This document shows, piece by piece, positions 2,906 to 47,508 of a stretch of 64,000 bases of DNA (positions are counted from its first letter, which is position 1; every line of letters begins with the position of its first letter). The translations under genes and the position numbers were made by a program. The stretch lies in IMG/VR virus record IMGVR_UViG_3300017613_001373. The stretch is one strand, 5' to 3'. Under the pieces are notes generated by a model. That model had not been told where the DNA came from. It ran no database searches and saw only the letters and a program-made list of their open reading frames with translations. This stretch comes from an uncultured virus (IMG/VR IMGVR_UViG_3300017613_001373). Lineage: Duplodnaviria; Heunggongvirae; Uroviricota; Caudoviricetes.

Positions 2906-3081
2906 CAGATAGAGTAATAGGCGGTTCAGCTATACCAGTCCATGTTATCAACGGGAGTGGTGATACAGCGAGTAGACCAGCAACCCCAACAATAGGACAG
3001 ACTTACTTTGATACCACACTTGGTATACCAGTTTGGTATGATGGTACAAACTGGATTAATGCAATGGGTACAATTGTGTAG
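2902..3081 (+). CDS. small head-fibre/decoration-like protein
   Basis: GGAGA SD; GxTAxRP..GQxYFDTTLGxPVWYDGTNW motif typical of phage fibre modules. Confidence 0.6.
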   Translation: MTDRVIGGSAIPVHVINGSGDTASRPATPTIGQTYFDTTLGIPVWYDGTNWINAMGTIV

Positions 3082-3083
3082 TG

Positions 3084-3542
3084 TTAACGCAATGTTTCCA
3101 TAACAGCTAGACTATCAGCGATGTGTTCTTGTTTTGCTTTGGTTTTAGGCCAATTCAATTCGGGATATTTTCGCATTCCCCATTCTATGATTTCATCCTT
3201 TGTTGCATTTTTCCCAACAATATTTTTAACCTGATTTGGAGAAACAGTTGTAAGATTTTCCAACCCCGCTAGGATACCGATAATTACGCCACTAGCCATT
3301 GCCGCACGGGAACTTTGTGATCCTGTTGGAAGTTCTGCGATGATAATATCTTTATCTTGTATAAAATTTTGCAATCCTTTGTGTATTTTCCTAGATGCAC
3401 GAAGGTCATCTAACCCGACTTTACCCTTACCTTTTTTTGTTTGTATAATGTCAAGATTATATGGAATTGGTATGCCGTCAACCAGATTGAATTCTACAAT
3501 CCCAATGTTTCTAAATGCTGGATCTAATGCTAAACCCCTCAT
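3084..3542 (-). CDS. RuvC-like Holliday junction resolvase
   Basis: LALDP, IAE and HIADS acidic catalytic motifs. Confidence 0.85.
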   Translation of the reverse strand: MRGLALDPAFRNIGIVEFNLVDGIPIPYNLDIIQTKKGKGKVGLDDLRASRKIHKGLQNFIQDKDIIIAELPTGSQSSRAAMASGVIIGILAGLENLTTVSPNQVKNIVGKNATKDEIIEWGMRKYPELNWPKTKAKQEHIADSLAVMETLR

Positions 3543-4102
3543 ATAGCACCACCCACATGATAATTATACATATCAATATACAATTCATTACCAAGTTGAA
3601 TATCCTCTAATGTCACACCTAATTTTACAATTTTACCACCGATCATAATTCCTACTGGGACTGTGATTTCTGGATTTATATCATCCTCTTTCCAAGGTGA
3701 TGCTGATAACAATGTATCTACTAATCTATTGTAAAAGTGGGTAGTAAGCAAATGACACGCTGATAAATAATCAATCAGTGTGCCATTTTTGTGTTTGTAC
3801 TTATATAGGTCTTGTAGTGCTAAGTTCACCATTGCACTAGCGAATTCTGTCAACGGTGAACGAAATTTATTAATGGGAACATATTCTTCATTTGTTTGCC
3901 CATTTGCTTTTCGTACTGGTAATCCTTTATTACGAAAAGCATTTGTCAATTGACTTCGAGATACACTTATACCATATTCTTCTTGTATCCATACAGTTGT
4001 CTTATCCAACGATTTAATCTCGTTGATATACTTGTGATTAATTTTTTCTAGGTCATTTGCGCCTAGAGCATCATTCCATTTCATATAGTGTAAAATATAC
4101 AC
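3539..4102 (-). CDS. hypothetical protein, possible N-terminal HTH
   Basis: WIQEEYGISVSRSQL is HTH-like; coupled to the resolvase gene. Confidence 0.5.
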   Translation of the reverse strand: MYILHYMKWNDALGANDLEKINHKYINEIKSLDKTTVWIQEEYGISVSRSQLTNAFRNKGLPVRKANGQTNEEYVPINKFRSPLTEFASAMVNLALQDLYKYKHKNGTLIDYLSACHLLTTHFYNRLVDTLLSASPWKEDDINPEITVPVGIMIGGKIVKLGVTLEDIQLGNELYIDMYNYHVGGAI

Positions 4103-4118
4103 TATATGTCAATGTTTG

Positions 4119-5420
4119 TCAAAACTGGGCTACTTTGGGCATATCTGTATAACTACCATTTGATGGATTCCACATTAGTTCAAACATGCCAACACCAATA
4201 TTACGACCTTTTGCGACATTAATTTCTGTTATATTCCCTCGTTCAGATTCGGGATTATAAACGCTATCACGATAAAGCAACCAGATATTATCAGCACTTT
4301 GCTCCACATAACTTGACTCTTTTAGGTCGCTTTTCAAGGGGCGCTTATCTTGTCGGTTCGCAAAACTACGATTTAATTGTGCCGCTAGTAAAATATGCAT
4401 ACCAGTAGACTTACCTAGTTCAGCAAGAGCTTGTGATGCTAACCCAATTGCCAATGTCCGATCTTTGGCATATTTCTCATACTGAATCAATTGCAAGTAA
4501 TCAACAGTGAATAATTTAGCACCGTTCATCGCCATTTTACGACCAATTGCTAAAATGCGCTCAAGTGATGTGTTTGATGTACCATAAATATTCCATAAGT
4601 CACGATGATCTTTCATTCGTTTTACAGCATTGAAATAATCATGTGTCATAGTTGGACTATTGTGATACTCCCCTTTACGGATTTGGGTCATGTCTAAAGA
4701 AGAATATCGCGCAATCTGTCTTTGTACGATTTGTTCTTCATCCATTTCTAAAATAACACTACCGACTTTATTACCATTATCAAGTGCATACGAGATCATG
4801 TCAGACAATATAGCAGTTTTACCAACACTGGTATCTGCCGCAATAACGGTCATGTCTTTTCGGAACAGTCCACCAAACCGTTCATTAAATTCAGAAAATG
4901 GCGTTTCAATTAACCGTGAGGACATCGGCATATCTTTTTCTGCCTCAGACTTTGCAACGGTAGCATCTAATAACGCATCAAATGATGAATCAATTAGATC
5001 AACATCACCATTGAAATCAATATTAGACAGCTTTGTTTCAATTTCAAGGGGTGCAGATGTTGGATCGGATATTGAATCTGCCATTTCTTGGATTTCTAAA
5101 CCAAGTTCTTTAAGCGAGTTACGGATTGCTTCATCACGAACGGTTTTGACATGTAGTGGTATATTTTTCTCTTCATATTTGAAGTTGAAAAACCGTTGAA
5201 CGTATTTTGTATCCAATCCTGAATACTTACTAATTAACAGCGGTGTCGGTACAGATAACTCGTCTATACATTGTTGAAACGCTACGTAAATGGCTTGTGT
5301 TTGTGTTTTCCCTTCATCACTATTAAACTCTTTTGGATCTAGCGTTATCTCAGAATGTAGTTCTGGATATTTTAACAGGTGTGCAACGATGGCAATCTGT
5401 TCTTGGATTGTATTAATCAT
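4119..5420 (-). CDS. dnaB: DnaB-like replicative helicase
   Basis: AADTSVGKT Walker A, VDYLQL, AQLNR, DLKESS.EQSAD, KGRN. Confidence 0.93.
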   Translation of the reverse strand: MINTIQEQIAIVAHLLKYPELHSEITLDPKEFNSDEGKTQTQAIYVAFQQCIDELSVPTPLLISKYSGLDTKYVQRFFNFKYEEKNIPLHVKTVRDEAIRNSLKELGLEIQEMADSISDPTSAPLEIETKLSNIDFNGDVDLIDSSFDALLDATVAKSEAEKDMPMSSRLIETPFSEFNERFGGLFRKDMTVIAADTSVGKTAILSDMISYALDNGNKVGSVILEMDEEQIVQRQIARYSSLDMTQIRKGEYHNSPTMTHDYFNAVKRMKDHRDLWNIYGTSNTSLERILAIGRKMAMNGAKLFTVDYLQLIQYEKYAKDRTLAIGLASQALAELGKSTGMHILLAAQLNRSFANRQDKRPLKSDLKESSYVEQSADNIWLLYRDSVYNPESERGNITEINVAKGRNIGVGMFELMWNPSNGSYTDMPKVAQF

Positions 5421-5859
5421 TAATTAGTTCTCCCATATACTCAGCAAAGTATTTGTCATACGCTCTTTTAAATGTCGCTCTATCGGCCATCAATGTCTTT
5501 GACGCTCCTAAGTATTTCCAACCTCCCACAGCATTGATAGCTTTTTTGGTAATAGGATTCAAAGTGTCTGGCATACTTGGATATGCACCAAATTTTGCAG
5601 ACAGTTCTCCCCATGCAGTTTCAGCATCAGTAATGCCTAATGCTTTAGCTTTTTCAACTTGTACTAAGCCAATTAGAGTAGACCAATCAAAAAAGGGTGT
5701 ATTAGGCATCATGAAATACCGATTAAGAGCTTTGAGTGATGATTCTCCATGTTGTTCTAAAATGGTCAATAAGGTACGCATTGTATCCATGTTCAACTCG
5801 TGTTTCTTTGTATTCAACACAAGTTTAAATTGTTTCTTTATTGCTGAATCGTCTGTCAT
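5413..5859 (-). CDS. replicative helicase loader/inhibitor-like protein (G39P/DUF6475-like)
   Basis: AxxAW...AINAVGGWxxL...DRAxFxxAY pattern; overlaps the dnaB start. Confidence 0.6.
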   Translation of the reverse strand: MTDDSAIKKQFKLVLNTKKHELNMDTMRTLLTILEQHGESSLKALNRYFMMPNTPFFDWSTLIGLVQVEKAKALGITDAETAWGELSAKFGAYPSMPDTLNPITKKAINAVGGWKYLGASKTLMADRATFKRAYDKYFAEYMGELIND

Positions 5860-6032
5860 TGTATTTATAATCTCCTTATATGTTTAATTACTGAGAATGA
5901 GTATATCCTATCTAAATATTTTGTAAATAAGATATTAGTACTATAGAAAACGACCATCCCAAATGTAGAATGATCGTCTTTTCGTTTCTATAAATTTTTC
6001 GTTTCTATAAATTGTAAAATTTTACAATTTGA

Positions 6033-6374
6033 TTACCCTTCTTTATTTAATGTTTGCCAACCTTTCCCTGACGCTACAAAGTCTTTTAAAATCCGTACCG
6101 CACGATCTCGATAAACAGTACTGTTTGCAGACTCCTTACCCTCATTCAACAATGTCTGTACTGAAATTGCCTCATTCTTAACAGTTGTCCCGACAAGAAA
6201 TTGAAGGAAGCGCAATGCGCCTTCTTCTAAATGTACACGAGGTACGATGTAATTCAATGCTTCCGTAAAATCATCAAATGTTTGTAACACTTTATGATCA
6301 GGGTATGTCCCAACAACTTGCTGATATACCCCTTTATTATTAAAAATACGATAATTAACGGTTGTCACCATCAC
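6033..6374 (-). CDS. hypothetical protein
   Basis: GGAGG SD; co-oriented in operon. Confidence 0.65.
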   Translation of the reverse strand: MMVTTVNYRIFNNKGVYQQVVGTYPDHKVLQTFDDFTEALNYIVPRVHLEEGALRFLQFLVGTTVKNEAISVQTLLNEGKESANSTVYRDRAVRILKDFVASGKGWQTLNKEG

Positions 6375-6885
6375 CTCCTAAGACATTCCGATCCTGACGA
6401 TCAGAAAGTTTTGCTAAATTCATTTCTAAAATATCTTGTAATTCAAACCCGTATCCGTTTACTAATGCACCGAACACTGCGAAAAATTGAACAAGAAATA
6501 ACCGCGCCCTTACTAATTGTTGTGCAGACCCATCACGTTCAAACTTCTTCAAACGACCCATCACATTGCTTAATAATAAATACCCTCGTTTTACAAGATC
6601 ATCAGCATGTTCATATTGGACATACATATCAGCAGATTCCATAATTAATTCACTAAACGAATAACCCATTTCCTGAGATAGAGCATTGGCTTCCCAATAT
6701 CCATCGCCGAACTCCATTTGAAGGTCATGTTCACTAAATGGTGGAGTAAAGCCCCAGATCTTCTCTGCGATTTCCCCCCACTCGTCCACCAATGCCTTAG
6801 ATGGATATGATAAATTACCCCCCACATTCGGATAAATTGCTGTGTTCATAGCCTGTTGACTATATTGCTGTAAAAATTGTTCCAT
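6355..6885 (-). CDS. MazG-like nucleotide pyrophosphohydrolase
   Basis: TAIYP, DEWGEIAEK, EFGD, NLAKLSDRQDR...GDGDNR. Confidence 0.85.
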   Translation of the reverse strand: MEQFLQQYSQQAMNTAIYPNVGGNLSYPSKALVDEWGEIAEKIWGFTPPFSEHDLQMEFGDGYWEANALSQEMGYSFSELIMESADMYVQYEHADDLVKRGYLLLSNVMGRLKKFERDGSAQQLVRARLFLVQFFAVFGALVNGYGFELQDILEMNLAKLSDRQDRNVLGGDGDNR

Positions 6886-6943
6886 GTGTCTCTCCTTAAT
6901 TATTATAAATACCTTTCTATTGTATATTCATTATCCGTTCTTG

Positions 6944-9151
6944 TCAAAATAAGAGTGGATTCTTGGGTTCGATTTTATCAATAATTTTGTAGACCTCATC
7001 AATGTAAAAGTTAAAATCAATCGGGTAATCTTTCGGATTCTCTGAACCAACGTCATTCATTAGTTGAACACGTTGTCCTGCTAAGATACTAGAGTCACTG
7101 CCACCAAGTTTATGAACTTTTACAAGTGAATAACCATCATGTGTAACGACAATCACACGGTTGGTTTTTTGTAGTTTAATTTCCTCATTTTCACCATTCG
7201 TATCAATCCCTCTCAGAACAGGTTGAAACTTATTAGTGTCTGATTTTTGTGATACCATAAAGTCATACACACTGTCGTGATTATAGATTGTTTCCGCTAC
7301 TGGTATATTTTTAACATAATATTGATATAATGCGATTGGGACTATTGGATGTTTAAACCCTTTAGAGAAATTTGGAATCGAACGATAGTTGTCAATACTT
7401 GCATCTTCTGGTTTTATACCATTAATATGATCGCTATATCCAGCTAAGTCATAAAAGTCATTCTCTCCTGTCCATGATTTGTTTGTGAACAATCCTGCAA
7501 AAACCCCTTTCAGTTTTACTTTGTCACCATATGGACTCTGGATTACAGCAATGTAATTATTCACATCACGAATGATCATCTTCCTGTATAGTGTTGCATC
7601 CAATTCGATCTCGAAATGAGTCTCTAATTTTTCACGCATTACTTCTAAATCATCCATACGTGTTCTTAATACTTTTAGATTTACACCATCTGTATTTGCG
7701 CCTGTCACTTCAAACCCGTTTTGTCCTGCTGTTTCAGCAACCATCAATAAAGATAATTGTCCACTTACTGTAACTGAAACCATTGCTTTTGGGTCATATA
7801 ACCAGAAATACTCGCTGTTTAGCAATCCAAAAATCGAATTAATGGCGATTTTAAGTGCCTGTGCTAACAATGCCGCATTCTTGTCAGTTTTTCCTTCCTT
7901 TTTCTTAGCAAGACGTGTTTCAATAATTTGTACCAATACATCCAAGATTTCAGGTAAATGTTCTGGTAAAAAATGATTGTTAGCCATTAGCATTGGATAG
8001 TACGATCCGAAGTCCAACTCAAGGTGCTGATACGAATCATCACTCTCAAGAACCTCTGGTGGTGAATCACTATGCAATCCACCAATACCCATTTTATATA
8101 AAATCCCGTCATAATCTAGTTTAAAAAGATACTTGCCTGTACTATATTCTTTGACAAGTATTCGCTCCAATGCTGGTTCTGGCGCATCTATATATTTAGG
8201 TAGCTTGTAATTATTCCGAGCCGATTTTTCACCATCAATCTTCAATCCCGTTGTTCCAAATAATGTAAAGCCCTCGTTCTCATCATCATCCATTACCTCA
8301 TAAGGTGCGTCTTCTGCATTTTTATATAAGGTAATGGTTTTCATATGGCGCAAAAGTGCTTGTAATTCAGGTGTTTCAAAGGTGACTTTTTCACTAATGC
8401 ATTCTCCTAACCATATTGTATTACGAGGTGATGAGCGATGTTTAATATCATCTAACGGAATACCTGTTAGTTTTGGAACAAGGTTTTCAAGGATACTTTT
8501 TGCCATTTTAGTATCATTGGCAGTGGTAACATCTGTTCCAAACTCTTTAGTAACAAATTCACGAAGATCAAATACTGGTCGAAGAATTCTGGTCAGCTTT
8601 TCTTGGATTCTCACATCGTTGATATTATAATCTGTCAATAATTCAACCTGATCTGGTTGAATTAATTCACTAGGGTGAATAGGTAAATCTTGAAGACGAT
8701 TATGGTGAAGATGTACACCAGCATGTTTCAATGACGTAACCATTCTATTAACACGGGTTACTGCCATTGTATCCAATGACATACCCCAGATAAGTTTCTT
8801 CGGCCACATCAATTCATAATAATCTGGGATATTATCTTTACGATCCTCACGGGGGGTTTCGATAATTAATTTTGTCAAACGCCCCAGATGTTCGGCTGTA
8901 ATATTCTCATATTTCAAAATTGCTAATAATAGTGCGCGATCATAAAATAAATTATTATGCCCGTTTAATCGCTTATTCTTGTCGTTCAAGAATTCTCTTA
9001 ATTGGGGTAAATCATTACGCTCACCATACACAATAAATATTCTTATGTCAGTTGGATCATCGAGTCGCCATGCTACAAATGAGAAGAAATTTATGTAACT
9101 CTCAATATCATAAACCCAATCTATCATTTTGTTATAATCAATCACATTCAT
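6944..9151 (-). CDS. family B DNA polymerase with 3'-5' exonuclease
   Basis: YDIE, NNLFYD, YNINDV exonuclease motifs; DFGSYYP, KIAINSIFG, NTDG polymerase motifs. Confidence 0.92.
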   Translation of the reverse strand: MNVIDYNKMIDWVYDIESYINFFSFVAWRLDDPTDIRIFIVYGERNDLPQLREFLNDKNKRLNGHNNLFYDRALLLAILKYENITAEHLGRLTKLIIETPREDRKDNIPDYYELMWPKKLIWGMSLDTMAVTRVNRMVTSLKHAGVHLHHNRLQDLPIHPSELIQPDQVELLTDYNINDVRIQEKLTRILRPVFDLREFVTKEFGTDVTTANDTKMAKSILENLVPKLTGIPLDDIKHRSSPRNTIWLGECISEKVTFETPELQALLRHMKTITLYKNAEDAPYEVMDDDENEGFTLFGTTGLKIDGEKSARNNYKLPKYIDAPEPALERILVKEYSTGKYLFKLDYDGILYKMGIGGLHSDSPPEVLESDDSYQHLELDFGSYYPMLMANNHFLPEHLPEILDVLVQIIETRLAKKKEGKTDKNAALLAQALKIAINSIFGLLNSEYFWLYDPKAMVSVTVSGQLSLLMVAETAGQNGFEVTGANTDGVNLKVLRTRMDDLEVMREKLETHFEIELDATLYRKMIIRDVNNYIAVIQSPYGDKVKLKGVFAGLFTNKSWTGENDFYDLAGYSDHINGIKPEDASIDNYRSIPNFSKGFKHPIVPIALYQYYVKNIPVAETIYNHDSVYDFMVSQKSDTNKFQPVLRGIDTNGENEEIKLQKTNRVIVVTHDGYSLVKVHKLGGSDSSILAGQRVQLMNDVGSENPKDYPIDFNFYIDEVYKIIDKIEPKNPLLF

Positions 9152-9163
9152 ATTTATACCTTA

Positions 9164-9898
9164 TTATAATTCGTCCAGATTTACTTTTCCAGCTTTCATA
9201 AACACTGTTTTTCTACCACCATCAACCCAACGATTGTAATTTTCCATAGTCAAATCGCTTGTAAACGGTTTCTTCACAGGTTGTCCATCAGATGATTTTG
9301 ATTTATACCAACTAGTTAAATAGGTTAGAAATGCCTTAAAATCATCTTCGGGTATATTCGCACCAACGAAGGGTTTAATCGCTGTACGCAAAGGATAAGC
9401 ACCATCAGAAACGAGATTTAGATAACGTTGTGACCACATGAAAATCTTAAATGTATCTTGCTCCGAAATATCCCCATTTAGGAATAGTTTAACTTGTCCT
9501 GCAAGTTGATGAACAGGAATATCTTTGAATTCTTTTTGAATACCGTATGCAATGGTATACTCAGGTTTGCGTTCCTTAACTTTTTTCTCTTTCGGTTTTG
9601 CAAGTTCTACTTCGGCTTTTTCCCACATATCGTAACAGGATTGATGAAACTTACTCCCATCCACATCATACGCTTTTCGCGTTACCAAACCCCGTTCTAC
9701 CATAGAATCAATAGCTTTGCCAATTGGGGTAATCGTTTTATATCCCATACGCTGTGCTACAATTTCCCAAGATTTTTTCCCACATCGAGGTTGTGCTTGA
9801 AGATGTCCAAGTAATATCAATTCCTTAACGCTGATAAAATTTTCGTAATGCGTAAATACATACATAGGGAACGATACGACTTCATGACCAATTAGCAT
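9164..9898 (-). CDS. DnaD-like winged-helix replication initiator
   Basis: N-terminal wHTH (ISVKELILL...VAQRMG...IDSMVERGLV); first gene of the replication block; AAGGAG SD. Confidence 0.6.
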   Translation of the reverse strand: MLIGHEVVSFPMYVFTHYENFISVKELILLGHLQAQPRCGKKSWEIVAQRMGYKTITPIGKAIDSMVERGLVTRKAYDVDGSKFHQSCYDMWEKAEVELAKPKEKKVKERKPEYTIAYGIQKEFKDIPVHQLAGQVKLFLNGDISEQDTFKIFMWSQRYLNLVSDGAYPLRTAIKPFVGANIPEDDFKAFLTYLTSWYKSKSSDGQPVKKPFTSDLTMENYNRWVDGGRKTVFMKAGKVNLDEL

Positions 9899-9953
9899 TT
9901 TTGACTCCTTTTTTGACAGTATCTATGAATGTGTTATCATATCTGTAATTCAT
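9882..9953 (-). CDS. putative 23-aa leader peptide overlapping the initiator start
   Basis: GAGAG SD then MNYRYDNTFIDTVKKGVKNANWS*; overlaps the initiator gene by 17 nt. Confidence 0.45.
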   Translation of the reverse strand: MNYRYDNTFIDTVKKGVKNANWS

Positions 9954-10010
9954 TTTTTATTTCTCTCAACCCAACCCCACCAAGACAATTTCTTGGTGGG
10001 GTTTTGTGTT
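9946..10010 (+). ncRNA. putative antisense (countertranscript) RNA
   Basis: TTGACA 9913-9918, TGn-TATCAT 9935-9940, 13-bp hairpin 9973-10003 with T-rich tail; no convincing ORF. Confidence 0.55.
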
Positions 10011-10064
10011 TAGTAATAAAACAAGTTTATCCGAATTTGAATATTTTTCAATGGGTAAATAGTA

Positions 10065-10292
10065 CTAAATCATTTGATAATTTACTACAATATAATGATG
10101 CCCCTGTTTCGACACCAATAAATCATATGGTTGATTGTCAAAAACAATGAAATCTTTTGTCACAATTAATGATGTTGATGGGAAATCCACTTCACATTGT
10201 ACTTCACCAAAACGTTCACCAAACCTCTGTGATTGCAGTCTTTCATCAAGCCTCACATAGAACAATTTATCTATATATTCGGGTATTACCAT
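10065..10292 (-). CDS. hypothetical protein
   Basis: AGGAGA SD; co-oriented. Confidence 0.6.
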   Translation of the reverse strand: MVIPEYIDKLFYVRLDERLQSQRFGERFGEVQCEVDFPSTSLIVTKDFIVFDNQPYDLLVSKQGHHYIVVNYQMI

Positions 10293-10316
10293 AACATTCT
10301 CCTAATTTCTTTAGAA

Positions 10317-10655
10317 TCACCAAGACAATCCTATGTCCAATAACTGATCATACTCCCGATCTTTTTGCTCTTGGGATGCAATCTGATCTGCATTATCACG
10401 ATTGTAAATTTGCAATGTAATTGCTTCATCTAAGTCATTGGATACATATTCATAATCCAGTCCTGATATGTCTATAGTTTCATTATTTATAGAAATTGTT
10501 ACCTCATCAGGATCATACCACATTTCTAAAATTTTATCATCATCTATTATCTTTGATGTCATATAAGAATTACGATCACTCATGTAATTCCATATGATAT
10601 CACCATTATTTGTTTTATTAGTAATGTTGACAACAAGATTGTATTCTTTACTCAT
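10317..10655 (-). CDS. hypothetical protein (N-terminal T-x-x-G-x-x-x-W motif)
   Basis: AAGGAGG SD. Confidence 0.65.
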   Translation of the reverse strand: MSKEYNLVVNITNKTNNGDIIWNYMSDRNSYMTSKIIDDDKILEMWYDPDEVTISINNETIDISGLDYEYVSNDLDEAITLQIYNRDNADQIASQEQKDREYDQLLDIGLSW

Positions 10656-10664
10656 TCAACCTCC

Positions 10665-11471
10665 TTAATAGTTCACAACCAATACTTCACTGGTATTTCC
10701 ATTGTCTCCACGTTGATAATTTGAACCACGATATGAGGCATAAATGTCTATAACTCGATATCGCCCTGACCAGCGTGATAACAAATGATTAATCTTCCCA
10801 TTATTTGTCAAAGCATTTGACAATGCCCATTTTATACCTTTGTTATCTAACCTATTTAACAAAGTGAACAATCTTTGATCATGATCGGTTGACCAACCAG
10901 TATTATAACTCGCAACTCCGTTTGTATATGGCGGATCAAAATATACAAACCCCTCATATTCAAGTTCTTCAAAATCAGTCGAATGAAATTCAACATTTTT
11001 CTGTTGCCATTTCTTAACAAAATTAATCATGTTACGTCTGCGTGTAGGATTAAAAGTTCTTACTCCAAAAGGTAGATTGAAATTTCCAGCTTTAGCGAAA
11101 CGGATTTGATTACTGAAAGAATGAGCATTTAGTAAATAAAACCAGTACGGGTTAGGTAAAAGATTATATGCATCTCGTAATGTGTAATAACCTTTTTTAT
11201 TTGAGGCTGAAAGTTTATAATACTCAATTTCTTTATCTAAGCGGTATAAAATCCTTTCAATTGGTTCTTCGTACATCACCGTCAACCATTCTACAATCGG
11301 TTGACAAGAATCATTAATTACAATTTTTTCAGCGTCTACATTTACTGCCACATTGCCCGACCCAACGAAAGGTTCAGTAAACACCTTTGTCTCTGGAAAA
11401 TGTGGTAACAGTTGATCTAATAGTTTATATTTGTGTCCTGTTTGACCAAGCGGTGACTTAATTTGTGTCAT
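10665..11471 (-). CDS. Dam-family (D12) N6-adenine DNA methyltransferase
   Basis: EPFVGSG SAM motif, IRF..GNFNLPFG, DPPY. Confidence 0.9.
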   Translation of the reverse strand: MTQIKSPLGQTGHKYKLLDQLLPHFPETKVFTEPFVGSGNVAVNVDAEKIVINDSCQPIVEWLTVMYEEPIERILYRLDKEIEYYKLSASNKKGYYTLRDAYNLLPNPYWFYLLNAHSFSNQIRFAKAGNFNLPFGVRTFNPTRRRNMINFVKKWQQKNVEFHSTDFEELEYEGFVYFDPPYTNGVASYNTGWSTDHDQRLFTLLNRLDNKGIKWALSNALTNNGKINHLLSRWSGRYRVIDIYASYRGSNYQRGDNGNTSEVLVVNY

Positions 11472-11489
11472 TTTGATTCATTCCTTTCC

Positions 11490-11612
11490 TTATTTATCAT
11501 CTTCAATTAAATACCCTTGTTGTTCATCAACAACTTCTAATTGCAATCCGTATACTAATTCGTCTACTTCTGCCTCTGTTAGTTCATCATCATCTGGTAA
11601 ATATCTCATCAT
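11490..11612 (-). CDS. small acidic protein, 40 aa
   Basis: AAGGAG SD; MMRYLPDDDELTEAEVDELV...; below the ORF-track length cutoff. Confidence 0.55.
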   Translation of the reverse strand: MMRYLPDDDELTEAEVDELVYGLQLEVVDEQQGYLIEDDK

Positions 11613-11645
11613 TTTTTACTCCTTATACTCTCAATAACGCTAATA

Positions 11646-11879
11646 CTACCGCGCTCGTAAACACACTATTAAATTTGACTCATCGAATGAGTCGTCCTCA
11701 TCAATTTCGTTCCTATCCAAATAATATCCGTCTTCCCAATAACCAATCGTGGCAGGTTTTTTAACTTGTACCCCACCCGCTTCATCATATTGAGTCATCA
11801 CCATCACATTCAACTTTAACGATTCTGGCTCACCGATTGACAATGCAATTAACTCATTTAAATATTGTTCAAATGTCAT
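11646..11879 (-). CDS. hypothetical protein
   Basis: overlaps the upstream gene's stop. Confidence 0.6.
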   Translation of the reverse strand: MTFEQYLNELIALSIGEPESLKLNVMVMTQYDEAGGVQVKKPATIGYWEDGYYLDRNEIDEDDSFDESNLIVCLRAR

Positions 11880-12285
11880 ATATACCCTGTAATCGAGTGG
11901 ATTCCGTCAATAATACTTGTCGCCTTTCTTCCGCAAACTCGACAAATTCTACGAAATTTTCATCAGATTGAATGAGTAATTCTACATAACGTTTCTTAGC
12001 ATCACTCATTGTTTTAAATACTTCAAATTGTACAACTCGATGTCGAGAATTATAATCATTCATACCATAGAGAGGATAATACATACTTGACAACACACTA
12101 TTGGATTCCCAATGATACGCTCTGGTTGATTCACCAAGTTTGTTGTTTTGACTTATTCGTACCTTTGTTGGTTTTATATTTCTCTCGTGTGATATAAGCG
12201 GGTTCCATGAAGTGATCAGACTACAAATATAAAATGTTTCACCGTCATGGAGTCCATCTACTACCTCTTGTGTTAGTCTATTCAT
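11869..12285 (-). CDS. hypothetical protein
   Basis: co-oriented ORF. Confidence 0.6.
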   Translation of the reverse strand: MNRLTQEVVDGLHDGETFYICSLITSWNPLISHERNIKPTKVRISQNNKLGESTRAYHWESNSVLSSMYYPLYGMNDYNSRHRVVQFEVFKTMSDAKKRYVELLIQSDENFVEFVEFAEERRQVLLTESTRLQGIYDI

Positions 12286-12297
12286 TATTCACATCCC

Positions 12298-12597
12298 CTA
12301 TTCTCTAATAACAATTTCACCATTTACAACTTCACCATCCCATGTTGAGAAATCACATGAGACACCATATTGACTAGCATCAACAAAACCGTGATGATAC
12401 ACGATACACGCCATGCCGTCCACTACTATATATTCAAAATCCGATTCTTGTATTTCTGTAATTGTTACTTCACCTGACGAATCTGAATTGTCTGATAACC
12501 CATCAGCGATTAATGTAGCACTGGCGATTACAACAATTGCGACCAATACTAACACTAAAGCATACTCTACCAAACCTTGCCCTTTTTGATTTTTCAT
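12298..12597 (-). CDS. Flp/type IVb pilin-like N-terminus fused to a small soluble domain
   Basis: KG|QGLVEYALVLVLVAIVVI prepilin cleavage site and Flp EY motif. Confidence 0.75.
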   Translation of the reverse strand: MKNQKGQGLVEYALVLVLVAIVVIASATLIADGLSDNSDSSGEVTITEIQESDFEYIVVDGMACIVYHHGFVDASQYGVSCDFSTWDGEVVNGEIVIRE

Positions 12598-12630
12598 AAA
12601 TGTTTCCTTTATCTAATTAATTTGAATATA

Positions 12631-13077
12631 TTATATTGTTACATCCAATGCTGAAATAATGTCACCATAACAACGTTTAAAATCTTCTTTCATGTCTTCA
12701 ACATCTGAATTTGTAGGAAGTGATACTGGTTCTGAGATCCCACCGTCGTATTTATCAAAATGTAACCACATCGGCTTATCACCATCCTCTATCTTATTTC
12801 CAATACATACAATCTTACCTCTTTCAAACAAATAGTCTGATGTAACCTCATGTAGCACATCTTCCCATTCTCCATCAAGTATCCAATCAACAATAAAACG
12901 TGGATGTATTTTAATCACTTCTTCCTTCTCCGCGATTATAAAACCACAGTTTTGACAGTACACACCATCCTGTTGCTTATGACCGTTTTTACACCCACGA
13001 AATGTCATATGATGATTAATTTCATATGTATCTATTTCCAAATATACTCCAAAATAATGATATAGATTGTTACCCAT
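12631..13077 (-). CDS. hypothetical zinc-ribbon protein
   Basis: CKNGH...YCQNCG. Confidence 0.6.
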   Translation of the reverse strand: MGNNLYHYFGVYLEIDTYEINHHMTFRGCKNGHKQQDGVYCQNCGFIIAEKEEVIKIHPRFIVDWILDGEWEDVLHEVTSDYLFERGKIVCIGNKIEDGDKPMWLHFDKYDGGISEPVSLPTNSDVEDMKEDFKRCYGDIISALDVTI

Positions 13078-13096
13078 AATTTCTCCCTAAATAAAA

Positions 13097-13132
13097 ATAA
13101 ACTTCTTTCGCTTGAATCTGAAAGAAGTTTAT
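13097..13132. terminator. hairpin/terminator downstream of rtcB
   Basis: ATAAACTTCTTTC...GAAAGAAGTTTAT inverted repeat. Confidence 0.5.
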
Positions 13133-13175
13133 CGTAGTTTGTTGCTTTTGTCGATAGGACTTTTGTACTGACTTA

Positions 13176-14501
13176 TTATTTCCCACCCATAATTACTACA
13201 ACAGGTGTCATAACAGCTACCTTATCAACTAATTCTGATTGAGCATTCATAACATCATCAATGTTCTTGTATGCGAATGGATTTTCATCCTCCTCAACAC
13301 CAATCCATGTGACATCTAAATAATCTTTTGCTTGCTGTACCCGTACAGGATCATAGTTTTGTTTAGCTTTTGTGCGTGATGATACACGACCAGCACCGTG
13401 AGAAGATGACCATAATCCATCAGGATTACCCAACCCCTCGACAATGTAACTATGTGTTCCTGCTGAACCAGGTATTAATGATGCTTGACCTAATCCTGCT
13501 GGTGATGCGCCTTTACGATGGATCACCGTTCCGTCATCTTGAACCCATGCGAAATTATGATGATTTTCTAAACGTACACCTCCGTCTAAACCGGCATATT
13601 GTAAAAAGTGATCATGAATTAAATAATGATTAGCTTGCGCGTAATCACCCATTAGATTCATGACTTCCAAGTATTCTGCCCCATCCTCAGATTGTGTGTC
13701 TAACCATTCATATCCTGTAGGGATATTATATCCACCTGTTTGACGATGTGCTAGTTTCATATAATGTTGTGCCATTTTATAACCAGTACCACGACTACCT
13801 GAATGTGTTAAAAGTACTAACACTTCTTCATCAGCCTCATATGGGAAAAATTCAGTCCATCCCAAACTTTTTGCCGTCATAATGTTTGCAAAATGGTTTC
13901 CGCTTCCGCTAGAACCCAACTGATCCCATGCCTTATCTTTCAAGTTGCTCAAATGCGGTAATTCATCCCACAATGAATCATACATCACATCATGATCACG
14001 ATTCTTATATGGCGTATCACCATATTGAGCCTTGCCTAATCCAAAATGTGTAACATCAACCAACATGTTAGCAAATTGATCACGATCTGATTTGTCTTTG
14101 ATTAATTCAGTTCCACCTAAAACAGTCAATGTCATTCGACAAGCAATATCATATCCAACCATTGAGGGTGAAACAGCATGATCTAATTGTGCAACCCCAC
14201 CAATGTTCAAGGCGTACCCCAAGTGAGCATCAGGCATTACCGCCCCACGTACAGCAACAGGTAATCGCATTGCAATATCCATTTGATCCAATGCGGTTTG
14301 ATCAATATCCCCATAAACACTATACGGAGCGGCTTCATCATTCATTTGAGGACGTTGAATTGGTAAACCAAATTCTGCTTCAACAGCATTTAATACATCA
14401 ACCCCTTGCTCCAACCTAGCGGCGTATTGTGCAATTACTCCAAAGTTATCTACCGTATGTCCGTTATACCCTGCGTCTCGTAAAATTTCGTGAGTTTTCA
14501 T
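13176..14501 (-). CDS. rtcB: RtcB-family RNA ligase
   Basis: MPDAHLG, VGYDIAC, GSGNHF, HSGSRG, HHN, HRKGA, SHGAGR, AYK. Confidence 0.95.
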   Translation of the reverse strand: MKTHEILRDAGYNGHTVDNFGVIAQYAARLEQGVDVLNAVEAEFGLPIQRPQMNDEAAPYSVYGDIDQTALDQMDIAMRLPVAVRGAVMPDAHLGYALNIGGVAQLDHAVSPSMVGYDIACRMTLTVLGGTELIKDKSDRDQFANMLVDVTHFGLGKAQYGDTPYKNRDHDVMYDSLWDELPHLSNLKDKAWDQLGSSGSGNHFANIMTAKSLGWTEFFPYEADEEVLVLLTHSGSRGTGYKMAQHYMKLAHRQTGGYNIPTGYEWLDTQSEDGAEYLEVMNLMGDYAQANHYLIHDHFLQYAGLDGGVRLENHHNFAWVQDDGTVIHRKGASPAGLGQASLIPGSAGTHSYIVEGLGNPDGLWSSSHGAGRVSSRTKAKQNYDPVRVQQAKDYLDVTWIGVEEDENPFAYKNIDDVMNAQSELVDKVAVMTPVVVIMGGK

Positions 14502-14541
14502 AATTCTCTCCTTTTTTCTTTTTCTCTTTCAATATGTTAAG

Positions 14542-14586
14542 AGTATATATCACTTTGTAATTTTTTACAATAGCCTCTTGGTACTA
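14542..14586 (-). promoter_or_regulatory. sigma70-like promoter with upstream TAGTAC-N4 box and TTGTAA-N4-TTACAA palindrome
   Basis: TTGTAA-17-TATACT facing rtcB. Confidence 0.7.
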
Positions 14587-14602
14587 TTATTCTAACCGTG
14601 AA

Positions 14603-14759
14603 TTATAATTTAGTTATTATTAAAATTAAATTCTTAGGAGGAATAAATTATGGCGTTTGTAAGTCCCGAACAAGGGAAAGTGGAAATGAGATTCGACTCA
14701 ACTGGTGCTTTATTTGGTCGATCCAATAGTGTTGCCGAAATCGAAGTTAGCCCTGCTGG
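14603..14759 (+). repeat. 157-bp direct repeat copy 1 (-10 box, RBS, first 37 codons)
   Basis: matches 15645-15801 with 7 mismatches. Confidence 0.95.
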
Positions 14760-15510
14760 GAGTAGTGCTGGAATTGGCTTTGACACGCTCGGTAACGTGC
14801 TGGTCGTTGATCCTACATTTACAGAGGCGACAAGTGGATGGGGTGTGAGGGCGTTTGCTTATGTATCAGCGGCAGTTACCGCTTCAACTGCAAATGACCT
14901 TATTTACTGCAATGGGATTCTCGCAGAGGAAGTAGCTCTGATTACAATCACGCACGACCTAACATTTACAGGGAATGCAATACTTGACCCGACACAAAGT
15001 AATTTTGATGTGGATGGTTGCAATGTGACCATCTATGGCAATCTTGAATTCCAAGCTCCTACTTCATCGTTCATTGTACAAAACGGTGGGACGCTTACCA
15101 TGTTTGGAGGCAAGGCTGTGGGGGCAAACGTGCATGATGACGGATCAAAGTTTATTATCCACAACACAGAAATTACAGGATTGATTAGTGGTGATGATGG
15201 ACTAGGGACGCTTGGAAATGTTGTTGCGAGAAACTGTACGATAGATACATTATCGTCATTTGCGTCAACAACGGCGGATGTAAGGCGTTGTGACATCATT
15301 ACTCAATTAAACAATGTGACACTCGATCCACTCGATGGCACAAACACGTTAGTCAACATTCCATACAGAGAAGTCGTCACCCTCGCCTCCTTACCAGCGG
15401 CTTCGGCGGCGAACGCTGGTGCAACAGCTGCAACGTCAGACGGTGGAAGTGGTTCGATTCCCGCTCTGATGTACTCCAATGGGAGTGCTTGGGTTGTTGC
15501 GGCTGAATAA
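14650..15510 (+). CDS. virion fibre/decoration-like beta-rich protein, paralog A
   Basis: N-terminus shared with paralog B; C-terminal LASLPAA...YSNGSAW fibre motif. Confidence 0.6.
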   Translation: MAFVSPEQGKVEMRFDSTGALFGRSNSVAEIEVSPAGSSAGIGFDTLGNVLVVDPTFTEATSGWGVRAFAYVSAAVTASTANDLIYCNGILAEEVALITITHDLTFTGNAILDPTQSNFDVDGCNVTIYGNLEFQAPTSSFIVQNGGTLTMFGGKAVGANVHDDGSKFIIHNTEITGLISGDDGLGTLGNVVARNCTIDTLSSFASTTADVRRCDIITQLNNVTLDPLDGTNTLVNIPYREVVTLASLPAASAANAGATAATSDGGSGSIPALMYSNGSAWVVAAE

Positions 15511-15598
15511 TTTTAGTTACTAACAGGAAGAAAAACAACTAAGAAAAGATTGGCAAAGTAATATGAAATAATTGGATAAATAATAATATTCAAGAAAC

Positions 15599-15636
15599 AA
15601 AAAGAGATTGATTACCAATGATCAATCTCTTTTTTT
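15599..15636 (+). terminator. intrinsic terminator
   Basis: AAGAGATTGAT...ATCAATCTCTT followed by a T-tract. Confidence 0.8.
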
Positions 15637-15644
15637 ACCATAGT

Positions 15645-15801
15645 TTATAATTTAGTTATTATTAAAATTAAATTCTTAGGAGGAATAAATTATGGCTTTT
15701 GTAAACCCTGAACAGGGCAAAGTAGAAATGAGATTCGACTCAACTGGTGCTTTATTTGGTCGATCCAATAGTGTTGCCGAAATCGAAGTTAGCCCTGCTG
15801 G
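15645..15801 (+). repeat. 157-bp direct repeat copy 2
   Basis: see copy 1. Confidence 0.95.
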
Positions 15802-16510
15802 TGGTGTTGTAACCCCTTTTGATGACGGTTCATTCATAGTTGCACCAACGGGCGGCGACTACACAACGGTTAAAGAGGCATTGGATGTATTGACCACACA
15901 AGCTGGAGTGCATATTATAAAATTGTATGGGCGTGTATTAGAGACAGCCGATATGTCTTATCCTGCTTGCGTTTGTGATGAGATTATTATCGAAATGCAG
16001 TCAGCGGCGGGATGGGGTGTCGAATCAATTACAATGAATAAAGGTCTTACGATACATGGTGCGGGTGCAAGTCGTTCGATTCTCCCAAGTGTTGAGTTTC
16101 AAGAGGACGCTGTTGTTTACCCGCGATATTTGGTATTGGAATACTTAGCTATTGGCGGGGTTGCCACGAAAGGTGCAAAACCTATTCTAACATCGACGAA
16201 CTTCACTAAAATATCGCATTGCACAGTTACCTATGATCCCTTATTAGTTATCACATCTGATGACGCAGTAACCATCGATCATACCTCTCTATTAGATGGA
16301 AATGGAAACGCCAATGCTGATGTTGATGTAAATGGACTTTCTCATATATCATTAAAGCATTCTAGCTTTGGAGAGTTACAACACGCATCGGGGCTTGCTC
16401 TATCTGCTTACCAAATAGGATTCTGCGAGATTGACGCATTAGTAAATGTAACTCTACCTGCGGGGAACTTTTCAAACACTGTACAAGGGATCACCAATCC
16501 AGTACCATAA
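15692..16510 (+). CDS. virion fibre/decoration-like beta-helix protein, paralog B
   Basis: shared N-terminus; VAPTGGDYTTVKEALD pectin-lyase-like cap. Confidence 0.6.
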   Translation: MAFVNPEQGKVEMRFDSTGALFGRSNSVAEIEVSPAGGVVTPFDDGSFIVAPTGGDYTTVKEALDVLTTQAGVHIIKLYGRVLETADMSYPACVCDEIIIEMQSAAGWGVESITMNKGLTIHGAGASRSILPSVEFQEDAVVYPRYLVLEYLAIGGVATKGAKPILTSTNFTKISHCTVTYDPLLVITSDDAVTIDHTSLLDGNGNANADVDVNGLSHISLKHSSFGELQHASGLALSAYQIGFCEIDALVNVTLPAGNFSNTVQGITNPVP

Positions 16511-16923
16511 TGAAAACAATAACACTAGCAGAGATTCTAGCAAGTAATGAACAGCACTGTATAAACCCTCTTACTGGAATTAGTGAAAGTGGTAATCAAA
16601 CAGATAAGAAAACGCTTCTTGATGGTTGGTCAGGGACTATCATCGAGGCGTTTTCACTTCTTGACGATTGGGAACCAGAAAGGCTTATCGGAGTTATATC
16701 GTGGAATGATTGGTTATCAAATGACGATTTTATTATTATTTGTGAAGCAATTAAACAAGAACTTGATAGCAGTTATATGGAAAGAGTAGAATTACTGATT
16801 GGTTATATAGAAAATAATTATAGTGTTAAACAATCAGTTCTACTTATTTTACAAATGGCAAAATCTACTATTGGAAAAGCGAAAACATTAGATATAATAT
16901 TATCATGTTTTCCCAAATATTGA
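16510..16923 (+). CDS. hypothetical protein coupled to paralog B
   Basis: TAATG overlap. Confidence 0.6.
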   Translation: MKTITLAEILASNEQHCINPLTGISESGNQTDKKTLLDGWSGTIIEAFSLLDDWEPERLIGVISWNDWLSNDDFIIICEAIKQELDSSYMERVELLIGYIENNYSVKQSVLLILQMAKSTIGKAKTLDIILSCFPKY

Positions 16924-21667: not shown

Positions 21668-21844
21668 ATGGATAAAAAACGAACTGAAATAGTTCTTGAA
21701 TATGGTTTTTGGATGAAGCTGAAATGGATTGCTTTATCACAAGGCATGAGCCTAGCAGGACTGTTTAGAAAAGTATTAACACAATATATAGAGGACTATG
21801 AGCGAACGAAAGAGACGAATACTAAAACAAGACGAGAGAGTTAG
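21668..21844 (+). CDS. ribbon-helix-helix (CopG-like) regulator, 58 aa
   Basis: MDKKRTEIVL-EYGFWMKLKWIALSQGMSLAGLFRKVLTQYI; SD upstream; absent from the ORF track. Confidence 0.7.
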   Translation: MDKKRTEIVLEYGFWMKLKWIALSQGMSLAGLFRKVLTQYIEDYERTKETNTKTRRES

Positions 21845-22169
21845 ACTATGGTTACGACAAGGAGGTGTTTGTTGTTATTGTGGTATCCCCACAATACCGA
21901 TTTTTTACCAACAGGCGAATATGTTAGTTAAAATATTAAATCGTAAAAATAGATGGATCGATGTAAGCGAATTTGACCATTGGATAGCGTTCGCAAAGAA
22001 CGGATCAAACGATGATGGGAATATTTTTAATAGTTGTAAAACATGCAACAGATCGAAAAGTGATTCTAACATCGGTTGGACAAAACCAAAAACATCAATG
22101 TTAGGGAAATTTCTATATATGATTTTCCCAACAATTGAAGATGAGTTGAAACAAATCAAGGAGAAGTAA
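21798..22169 (+). CDS. HNH endonuclease-like protein
   Basis: CCYCG, DHWIA...G...N...SCKTCN. Confidence 0.85.
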   Translation: MSERKRRILKQDERVRLWLRQGGVCCYCGIPTIPIFYQQANMLVKILNRKNRWIDVSEFDHWIAFAKNGSNDDGNIFNSCKTCNRSKSDSNIGWTKPKTSMLGKFLYMIFPTIEDELKQIKEK

Positions 22170-22172
22170 CTT

Positions 22173-23234
22173 ATGGCAGAACAAAGAGGGAGTGCGAGTC
22201 GTGGGAGTCGTGGAAGTGGTTCACGATTCTACAATGAAAACGTAAATGTAGCAGGTAAAGATTTATCAATAGCCACTATTATACTAGGTGGTTTAACACT
22301 GTTTGGATTGTTTGGTGGCACATTTGCTACTGGATTAATGTCTAGGTATGGCTTTGTACTTGCCCTGTTTGCTGGTGCAGTATGGTTAGCATGGTCTGTT
22401 AGTCGTGATGGTGTATTCAGCCTCATGAACCAAATCTTCACATTTGTTTTAGCATTGTTAGCAATTATTTGGATTTTCTTCTCGTTTATCCCACATCAAT
22501 TGAATAATGTTAATACAAACGAATGGGAGCAGGTTTTTACAAACTTCAATACTAACGTGCAGACCACATCACCGTTTGTCAATCAACCTATTACTGGCGT
22601 GACATTGCCGAATTTCGATAATGCGATTACCACAAATGATCCTAATATTGGTGGTGGGAGTCCGTCATATACGTCTCAACCAGATGTAGATGTACATGAA
22701 CAACCTGTTTATACACAACAACCAAATGAAGCCAACAATGTTCCAGCAGTATCACAACCAGCAACACCATCACCAGCAACACCATCACCCACAGCGGGAT
22801 TGGAACGACAATTGGAAAACGCAATTATGGAAAATGACGGTGTGATGGTGATGGAATTAACTGGTCAAATTTTGACAATCAATCCTGACCATGCCAATGC
22901 GAAAGTTTGGAATAGTCAAGTAATTTCAGAAAAAATACATGTTGATTCTTTACGGAATATGCCACAACCAACAGGTGATTTTATGGCAGGGGTTGACAGT
23001 AATAGTCTGCAAAAAGCGATAGACCTATTGGGCAGTAATGGTGAGAAACCAAACGGGTATCAATACATTGTACTAGACAATGGTGCAAAAACGAGTAGTG
23101 TTGGTTGTAATGAAACAGCGATTCTTGAATTACAAAGCGGATTGTATGCAGGACAAAGTTTTACAACCCAACGCTGTTTGGTATCTAGTATTGCTGGTGG
23201 TTCTGAAAATGGAAAAGTCTTTACAGTACGGTAA
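22173..23234 (+). CDS. membrane protein (about 3 TM, Pro/Thr/Gln linker, soluble domain)
   Basis: hydrophobic segments near the N-terminus; AAGGAG SD. Confidence 0.75.
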   Translation: MAEQRGSASRGSRGSGSRFYNENVNVAGKDLSIATIILGGLTLFGLFGGTFATGLMSRYGFVLALFAGAVWLAWSVSRDGVFSLMNQIFTFVLALLAIIWIFFSFIPHQLNNVNTNEWEQVFTNFNTNVQTTSPFVNQPITGVTLPNFDNAITTNDPNIGGGSPSYTSQPDVDVHEQPVYTQQPNEANNVPAVSQPATPSPATPSPTAGLERQLENAIMENDGVMVMELTGQILTINPDHANAKVWNSQVISEKIHVDSLRNMPQPTGDFMAGVDSNSLQKAIDLLGSNGEKPNGYQYIVLDNGAKTSSVGCNETAILELQSGLYAGQSFTTQRCLVSSIAGGSENGKVFTVR

Positions 23235-23249
23235 TAAATAGGAGTTATC

Positions 23250-24776: not shown

Positions 24777-24778
24777 TT

Positions 24779-25057
24779 ATGAACAATGTTTTAGAGAAAC
24801 TTACATCCCCGTTAGTTGCGCTAGGATGGATCGGTGTATGTATCATAGCAATAATTGTCATAAACATTCTAATAGTAACGAATACGATTTTTATCTCACT
24901 TCGTGACAGTTTATGGTTGAATCATAATATATCAGCAATATGGGCTTTTTTAGTATTCATAGTATTAATTCCTGTATTCGTTATCACTATCTGGTTCATC
25001 ATTAACGGGATATGGATTCTTGCAAATAAAGGATTAAGCAAACTCCAAGATTGGTAA
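24779..25057 (+). CDS. 2-TM membrane protein
   Basis: two long hydrophobic helices. Confidence 0.7.
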   Translation: MNNVLEKLTSPLVALGWIGVCIIAIIVINILIVTNTIFISLRDSLWLNHNISAIWAFLVFIVLIPVFVITIWFIINGIWILANKGLSKLQDW

Positions 25058-25104
25058 GAATTAGTATTGTAAAAAATTACAAAGTCTCCTATAATTAATC
25101 TCTT

Positions 25105-39998: not shown

Positions 39999-40037
39999 TA
40001 AATTTGACTTATATCTACAATTGGATATAATACTTGT

Positions 40038-40141
40038 AAATGAGGTCACGCCAGTGATTTCATAAAATACCCCACAATAGCAAATCAACACTTCATGTTT
40101 TTTTATTCATCATTTAAAAACCCCGCTATTGTGGGTTTTTT
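40038..40141 (+). ncRNA. candidate small RNA or attenuator
   Basis: TTGACT-16-TATAAT promoter, 10-bp hairpin 40040-40063, terminator ending at 40141. Confidence 0.45.
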
Positions 40142-40184
40142 GCGTTTATTTGACAGTGACGAACATTGTGTTATACTGTTTTCA

Positions 40185-47434: not shown

Positions 47435-47508
47435 GCGCTCTTAGCTCAGTGGATCAGAGCAAATGGTTTCTACCCATTAGGTCGGGAGTTCGAGTCTCTC
47501 AGGGCGTA
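47435..47508 (+). tRNA. tRNA-Arg(UCU)
   Basis: acceptor GCGCTCT/AGGGCGT, anticodon arm AATGG-TTTCTAC-CCATT, T loop GTTCGAG; CCA not encoded. Confidence 0.93.

Follow-up and report, generated by a model that had tools for sequence, protein, structure and literature searches.

A predicted antisense RNA cassette in the leader of a DnaD-like gene from an uncultured phage

Antisense control of replication initiators is textbook knowledge for plasmids, and phage lambda has oop. The locus described here raises the question of whether an uncultured phage places a putative replication initiator under an antisense RNA and, if so, which of the known schemes the arrangement resembles. In plasmid R1, repA is controlled via the CopA antisense RNA and the coupled Tap leader peptide, and an earlier note on this DNA had proposed the same kind of architecture from the letters alone. 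The window (the whole 64,000-nucleotide [nt] stretch that was analyzed) is part of a 133,340-bp phage contig (36.5% G+C).

The gene in question (9164–9898, minus strand; ATG at 9898) encodes a 244-amino acid (aa) protein with an N-terminal winged helix of the DnaD-NTD fold and a helical C-terminal domain. Three close relatives share 44 to 65% identity with it, and a profile search returned 36 matches at E ≤ 0.001; alignment A3, which excludes the partial or repetitive profile matches P0031, P0035, and P0038, as well as P0032, holds 33 sequences. The A3 profile matches the DnaD-NTD of G. kaustophilus (2vn2) at E 2.9e-4. Among the 33 A3 members, 7 match Pfam DnaD_N (best E 5e-7) and 8 match NCBIfam DnaD_Mollicutes, the window protein itself being in neither set; 2 members weakly match the PHROG "replication initiation protein," none matches the Pfam RepA_N family, and the source annotation of one homolog is "DNA replication protein DnaD." The structure model (pLDDT 93.5), when compared with DnaD-NTD (VIA), gives Z scores of 10.2 (rmsd 4.0 over 98 residues) and 9.8 (rmsd 2.9 over 95), the next being 6.7, and Foldseek returned nothing at E ≤ 0.001 with either model. 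For the C-terminal domain there are only leads, at 0.89 to 0.90, to the initiator C-terminal domains RepB_C, DnaB_2, and Phg_2220_C. Clustered iteron-like repeats are absent from positions 8900 to 10700 of the window and from one related locus (L001, below), by a search that short or degenerate boxes could escape; an initiator function therefore rests on fold and neighborhood. Where the earlier note simply spoke of the replication initiator, the DnaD-like identity has gained fold and profile support, and a role as phage replication initiator or replisome organizer is plausible from sequence and model.

Relatives of the locus proved rare. A metagenome scan yielded loci from 2 of 246 candidates, L001 and L002, the only relatives with upstream DNA; their DnaD-like proteins are 46% identical to that of the window over the whole protein (L001) and 90% identical over 52 residues (L002). 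All conservation comparisons rest on these three loci, as against 32 homologs in alignment A3. Searches of 50,697 GenBank phage records with the initiator and with the capsid candidate (a 460-aa ORF at 1333–2715 that has no family match, is read as the major capsid protein, and has 47 metagenomic relatives) found no close relative, nor did scans of viral contigs with the initiator, its alignment, a homolog, the neighboring polymerase and helicase, the capsid alignment, or the hairpin pattern. Scanning of genome contigs gave a single locus (L003) by its capsid match only, and the initiator profile matches nothing in that genome. Neither the initiator nor a homolog found a counterpart in phages or plasmids by tblastn, and blastn of the cassette gave short, chance-level matches only.

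In the window, a gene for a family B-like DNA polymerase (6944–9151, minus strand; phrog_1252 at E 2e-129, Pfam DNA_pol_B at E 0.088 only) begins 12 nt downstream of the DnaD-like gene, and a DnaB-like replicative helicase follows at 4119–5420 (minus strand; PF03796 at E 3.6e-51, phrog_19 at E 3e-65). The proposal that the initiator heads a block carrying PolB and DnaB holds for the window, where both lie downstream, but linkage to PolB is not conserved, since unrelated ORFs follow the DnaD-like gene in L001. RuvC-like, MazG-like, and Dam genes (Pfam, PHROGs) also lie on the minus strand around the cassette. Immediately upstream is a 75-aa ORF (10065–10292, minus strand) that has no match in family searches and is not overlapped by the predicted antisense RNA; its place is taken by a similar 74-aa ORF in L001 and by the Dam gene in L002, which lacks the 112-aa and 75-aa ORFs separating dam from the cassette in the window. 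The residues VVNY occur at or near the ends of the window Dam and 75-aa ORF (within 10065–11471), the L001 74-aa ORF (17–241), and the L002 Dam (118–924), and the absence of the intervening ORFs from L002 suggests an indel at microhomology. Elsewhere, the window carries a Flp/Fap pilin-like ORF in the phage early region (12298–12597, minus strand; PF04964 at E 1.8e-5, below cut-off), an RtcB RNA ligase gene (13176–14501, minus strand), a plus-strand island within a minus-strand region (14650–16923), whose two ORFs (starting at 14650 and 15692) share an identical 35-residue N terminus and have no family matches, a tRNA-Arg(TCT) (47435–47509, plus strand), and a sulfotransferase gene among the tail genes (52627–53415, minus strand).

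Opposing the DnaD-like gene, a sigma-70-type promoter lies on the plus strand at 9913–9940, with TTGACA at 9913–9918, a 16-nt spacer, an extended −10 TG at 9932–9933, and TATCAT at 9935–9940. It scores 11/12 plus the TG, the best within positions 3000 to 15000, although the site counts of promoter scans are close to those of shuffled sequences (16 versus 11.8 ± 4.5 and 62 versus 53.2 ± 8.2) and are not significant alone. What lifts this promoter above chance is its conservation in both relatives, each of which scores 11/12 plus TG and has, on the antisense strand, the same TTGACA, 16-nt spacer, TG, and TAnnAT. In all three pairwise comparisons the −35 box is identical at 6/6 positions, the TG is kept, and positions T1, A2, A5, and T6 of the −10 box are kept, while the spacer between the boxes matches at 5/13, 5/13, and 2/13 positions and fourfold sites at 13/37, 8/20, and 27/67; silent sites are saturated, and identity in the spacer and at silent sites has fallen to about 35 to 40% around boxes that have been kept. 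At 0.4 per site, the chance of keeping 11 consensus positions is about 4e-5 per relative, a figure that somewhat overstates the case because the −35 box adjoins the Shine-Dalgarno (SD) sequence of the DnaD-like gene and is perhaps partly co-constrained with it. The distance from the −35 box to the initiator ATG is nearly constant (20, 19, and 21 nt in the window, L001, and L002) despite the differing neighbors. We set aside the single match of the promoter pattern in the window (versus 0.04 expected) as circular, the pattern having been built from the same loci.

Transcription from this promoter would start at an A, the seventh base after the −10 box in 3/3 loci, and yield an RNA of about 63 nt (9947–10009, plus strand) consisting of a 26-nt unpaired, pyrimidine-rich 5′ tail, one hairpin, and a U-tail. 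With both ends predicted, the lengths are 63, 59, and 60 nt in the window, L001, and L002. This agrees well with the RNA of roughly 65 nt that had been proposed to run from TTGACA/TGnTATCAT across the SD and ATG of a leader ORF: the elements are all there, and the leader sequence complementary to the RNA lies between about −49 and −111 from the initiator ATG. All three loci keep both the loop and the motif UUUCUC in the 5′ tail, and the tails of the three RNAs are computed to pair less well with one another's targets than with their own.

The RNA would end at an intrinsic terminator (9973–10011, plus strand), which has a stem at 9973–10003 with the 13 pairs originally described, the loop CAAUU, and the tail UUUUGUGUUU. 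Its stability exceeds that of every shuffle (z −5.0, 0/200). The same hairpin lies near the 5′ end of the sense mRNA and is stable on that strand too; the U-tail, however, is present on the plus strand only, and a terminator is called there only, in 3/3 loci. A hairpin serving solely as the terminator of upstream genes, which the earlier note named as the result that would speak against it, does not fit a U-tail on the plus strand between flanking genes on the minus strand. Antisense stem pairs number 13, 14, and 13 in the window, L001, and L002, with all pairs kept: the L001 stem has a symmetric 1-bp insertion in both arms, and the middle pairs are replaced across loci. The respective stems contain zero, two, and one wobbles, and all three wobbles are G-U pairs on the antisense strand and mismatches on the mRNA strand. 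By sequence comparison, the stem changes are compensatory and the wobbles favor the antisense strand, although a formal pair-count control is not significant with three sequences (161/500 shuffles; only 8 pairs are countable on the alignment). In L001 and L002 the antisense strand folds better than the sense strand by 2 to 3 kcal/mol, and in the window the sense strand folds slightly better (−25.0 versus −23.3). The loop and upper stem are near-invariant (12/13 nt), a conservation for which the mechanism proposed below offers no explanation. A reading of the loop as a repeated DNA operator was rejected, as 7 matches at up to 2 mismatches compare with 7.66 expected.

Judged from these three diverged phages, the antisense unit is real, with a promoter and a one-way terminator under selection at a near-constant distance from the ATG, and the cassette travels with the DnaD-like gene. 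Conservation in relatives, which had been suggested as a check, thus came out in favor of the unit: promoter and terminator are kept in 2/2 relatives with upstream DNA. No Rfam family accounts for it: CopA is not among the 13 weak Rfam matches at E ≤ 10 in the window, and at the gathering score the window, L001, and L002 yield tRNA only. A covariance-model search for a second copy recovered no locus other than the three used in training, each on both strands, the next best hit scoring 17 bits.

We infer that a constitutive counter-transcribed RNA of about 60 nt probably lowers the expression of the phage DnaD-like initiator. In the proposed mechanism, the unpaired pyrimidine-rich 5′ tail would pair with a purine-rich single-stranded stretch (conserved GAGAAA) just after the 5′ hairpin of the mRNA, initiating pairing as in pMV158 RNAII and without a U-turn kissing step. 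The resulting duplex would close an upstream ribosome-loading site, which in the window and L002 is the leader start, and would present a double-stranded nuclease target that exposes the mRNA to cleavage; convergent transcription may contribute interference, as proposed for lambda pO. The output would be a damped, dosage-dependent level of initiator.

How binding would lead to repression is constrained by the ribosome site of the DnaD-like gene. Its SD (AAGGAG, 9905–9910, minus strand) stands 6 nt before the ATG and is predicted to be accessible, and about 49 nt separate the antisense RNA from the ATG. When the RNA target is blocked, the computed accessibility of the ribosome site barely changes (0.71 to 0.72, 0.62 to 0.66, and 0.74 to 0.67 at the three loci), so that the predictions give no sign of a refolding switch, and how binding would lead on to repression is inferred. 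Since the site is not remodeled, attenuation and induced-hairpin models find no support: neither an alternative terminator nor an SD-sequestering stem is predicted of the kinds that such models (pT181, pIP501, repABC, and pSK41) call for. A pseudoknot linking the loop to the initiator start, as in the IncB/IncI type, was likewise rejected, the 5-pair match seen by eye being weak and lost in L002. The U-turn motif YUNR occurs in 0/6 loops (three antisense, three target).

The foremost alternative is the R1-type scheme, in which the initiator is translated only by ribosomes finishing the leader, and the RNA blocks the SD and ATG of the leader and thereby sets the copy number at which a plasmid prophage is maintained. 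The window does contain the 23-codon ORF that had been described as overlapping the initiator start (9882–9953, minus strand, running over the ATG at 9898; weak SD-like GAGAG at 9967–9963), and the antisense RNA covers its SD and ATG exactly. L002 has a 20-codon counterpart, beginning MNYR, which also overlaps the initiator start, ending over the ATG in a different frame, so that the geometry of the overlap differs between the two. Such arrangements are uncommon (3/59 window genes have an upstream ORF overlapping the gene start, the leader included), and an open frame of 18 codons, arising in 13 to 16% of composition shuffles, is mildly unusual. L001, however, has no leader ORF, with ATA at the homologous place and a stop three codons on. 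Furthermore, the codons common to the window and L002 leaders coincide with the RNA 5′ end, the −10 and −35 boxes, and the SD, and at codons 9 to 12, in the promoter spacer, the residue differs at all four; these changes say little alone, because conservation of leader products is not required and a leader is missing from some related plasmid control modules (PMC5304414, in the available text).

The R1 initiator ribosome-binding site is closed unless the leader is translated. Here, in contrast, the DnaD-like gene has an SD of its own in 3/3 loci, with a low predicted opening energy (3.95 kcal/mol in the window, 3.46 and 4.09 in the relatives, versus a median of 6.07 for 36 other genes). Also counting against the R1-type scheme are the missing YUNR loop, the lack of an Rfam match, and the lack of an integrase, ParA/B, or CI above cut-off within the 64-kb window, to be set against a possible plasmid-type transfer module there (see below). 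We regard this scheme as unlikely, and in the best explanation of the data the leader ORF is an optional add-on rather than the core of the switch. Of the copy-control architecture originally proposed, what survives is the counter-transcribed RNA in the leader, carried by its promoter, terminator, and wobbles; Tap-style control by the leader, and with it the specific R1 CopA/Tap mechanism, finds no support, given a leader missing from L001, a ribosome site predicted to be open, no YUNR loop, and no Rfam CopA match.

Ranked next, and a little further from likely, is an arrangement like lambda pO-oop, in which convergent transcription throttles read-through, or the RNA cuts a polycistronic mRNA at the junction of upstream gene and initiator, serving lytic timing or a lysis-lysogeny circuit with no role in copy number. 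The placement is that of oop (an antisense RNA with its own terminator, shortly ahead of the initiator start), the phage encodes its own polymerase and helicase, and pO is proposed to act via transcription interference (PMC3985674, in the part available). The antisense promoter (11/12 plus TG) is also much nearer consensus than the candidate sense promoter (10024–10051, minus strand: TTGAAA at 10051–10046, a 16-nt spacer, and TAAACT at 10029–10024), which is present just as the earlier note had it but scores only 9/12; the homologous place has TTGATA-16-TACAAT (10/12) in L002 and no sense promoter found by the scanner in L001. On the other hand, there is no overlap with the upstream coding sequence of the kind that oop has with cII, the upstream gene varies between loci, and pure interference would not need the UUUCUC tail and loop that are conserved in 3/3 loci. 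Transcription interference is both a contributor and the main rival to tail-initiated pairing, and we favor pairing.

It is very improbable that the cassette encodes an independent trans-acting small RNA or type I antitoxin unconnected with initiator control. The 5′ tail is anti-SD-like, and a generic promoter-plus-terminator pattern found three viral-contig cassettes, none of them in an initiator-like leader (0/3, ORFs judged by reading), but the spacing to the initiator ATG is fixed in 3/3 loci while neighbors change, the leader peptide is polar and absent from L001, and the longest other complementary sites within the window are four 12-mers. One of these, a perfect complement to the 5′ arm and loop at 10318–10329, 26 nt upstream of the start of the 75-aa ORF, is possibly a chance match and falls in the region absent from L002. 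The three compact cassettes lie on unrelated viral contigs (L004, 1128–1214; L005, 1501–1587; L006, 1501–1592), and in L004 and L006 the cassette comes after genes that look like lysis genes and has an anti-SD-like 5′ tail. Finally, a chance promoter match beside a hairpin that only terminates or stabilizes minus-strand genes is scarcely credible, even with promoter scans of AT-rich DNA near shuffle level and a hairpin stable on the mRNA strand, given the antisense-only U-tail and antisense-favoring wobbles, the promoter kept against a saturated background, and the absence of any plus-strand gene of the selected ORF set between 3081 and the hairpin.

What the cassette would mean for the lifestyle of the phage is a more speculative matter. 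Of 86 selected ORFs in 64 kb of the 133-kb contig, 84 were searched with Pfam and 82 with PHROGs, and none gave an integrase, ParA/ParB, or CI match above cut-off; weak partition-type matches occur at 261–1340 (E 0.046) and in residues 8 to 64 of 50694–51704 (E 0.0016). A 12/12 promoter at 21577 (plus strand) heads a block extending to 27244, whose genes (21668–27244, plus strand) encode an RHH protein, an HNH nuclease, membrane proteins, an FtsK/TraD-like ATPase that also matches a terminase family (E 3e-9), and two M23 peptidases; this content hints at a plasmid-type DNA transfer module inside the phage. Extrachromosomal prophages with RepA exist (PMC7157519, in the text available). We can only tentatively entertain, and on balance doubt, the fuller picture of a 133-kb phage that persists extrachromosomally, with copy number and incompatibility set by a new minimal antisense RNA family on the DnaD-like initiator and cell-to-cell spread via the FtsK/coupling-ATPase and M23 module at 21.7 to 27.2 kb.

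Another region of the window, 40004–41018, reads as a second regulated replication-type gene. A promoter (TTGACT-16-TATAAT) at 40004 (plus strand) is followed by a structured RNA of about 105 nt (z −4.8), in which an 11-base box can pair with an arm of a terminator-like hairpin. A further promoter (TTGACA-16-TG-TATACT) at 40150 (plus strand) ends 7 nt before the ATG at 40185, a possible leaderless start, and the gene encodes an HTH protein with a weak match to a DnaD-like loader (phrog_186, E 0.007).

A literature search in which subscription journals were thinly covered found no single-hairpin counter-transcript on a phage DnaD-like initiator. The cassette matches no Rfam family and does not open a new mechanism; it is a compact, testable module, some 150 bases long, and serves as a sequence marker that hints at a regulated, possibly nonlytic state in an uncultured phage group.

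Among known systems, the best comparisons, by analogy, are pMV158 RNAII, pSK41 RNAI, and, among phages, lambda pO-oop. Like the cassette RNA, pMV158 RNAII begins with an unpaired 5′ tail, followed by a single terminator hairpin whose loop has no U-turn and by a U-tract; its target, too, lies upstream of the rep translation signals, and its binding is driven by the 5′ tail rather than the loop (PMC4485353, as excerpted). RNAII is 48 nt long, however, and abuts the repB initiation region (PMC4485353), whereas the RNA predicted here is 59 to 63 nt long and ends about 49 nt before the ATG, a 28-nt promoter and discriminator separating its 5′ end from the SD. The initiators also differ, RepB being a rolling-circle initiator with a cotranscribed copG (same excerpt) and the present protein having a DnaD-NTD fold in a 133-kb phage contig; bearing on a CopG-like partner, the nearest and sole RHH match lies 11.7 kb from the cassette. 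In pSK41, RNAI pairs with a part of the leader that lies well ahead of the initiation region, and the structure of the RepA_N initiator is described as resembling DnaD (PMC5703833, in the text available), as the N-terminal domain does here. The differences are that RNAI, at about 83 nt with two stem-loops, induces a hairpin that sequesters the ribosome-binding site, and that Rep boxes lie inside rep (PMC5703833); the cassette has one hairpin with no induced structure predicted, and no clustered repeats were found in 8900–10700 or L001.

Lambda pO-oop-tO provides the phage counterpart, with a self-terminating antisense RNA directly upstream of the initiator start and its promoter beside the translation signals (PMC3349717 and PMC3985674, each in part); oop spans −90 to −10 from the O start (PMC3349717, supplementary legend). 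It differs in that oop targets the cII 3′ end, which it overlaps, as described in those excerpts, whereas the cassette RNA lies in a noncoding leader beneath an upstream gene that is not constant; in the window 55 nt separate the end of the RNA from the upstream ORF, and in L001 the RNA reaches only the stop codon of that ORF. That oop RNA is reported to leave O-P mRNA stability unaltered (PMC3985674, in the part available) counts against the pairing and decay model proposed here.

More distant likenesses concern single features. In R1 CopA/tap/repA, as in the window and L002, a short ORF overlaps the start of the initiator gene and has its own start covered by the antisense RNA (PMC12361487 and PMC5717011, in part). 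The leader is absent from L001, however, the ribosome-binding site is predicted to be open, the loops lack the YUNR U-turn that is a feature of the recognition loop of R1-type antisense RNAs (PMC4485353), and there is no Rfam match; the initiator belongs to another family, and no CopB-like gene is recognized upstream of the cassette. Pseudomonas REx-C modules and ColE2-type replicons share the portable antisense module, the conserved terminator stem with compensatory changes, and a leader peptide that only some members possess, but they are plasmid-borne and have three stem-loops over 175 to 194 nt (PMC5304414, in part), compared with one hairpin in about 100 nt here. B. subtilis ArrA, which is compared by description and not by homology, is antisense to the dnaA 5′ untranslated region and lowers initiator mRNA and protein, but it is chromosomal, and its production is inhibited by DnaA (PMC12112137, in part); the literature compared also includes part of PMC3155836. 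By the features tested, the cassette is not a member of the CopA/Tap, pMV158, pSK41, or oop systems; by analogy, it would work like plasmid counter-transcript control and sit like lambda oop.
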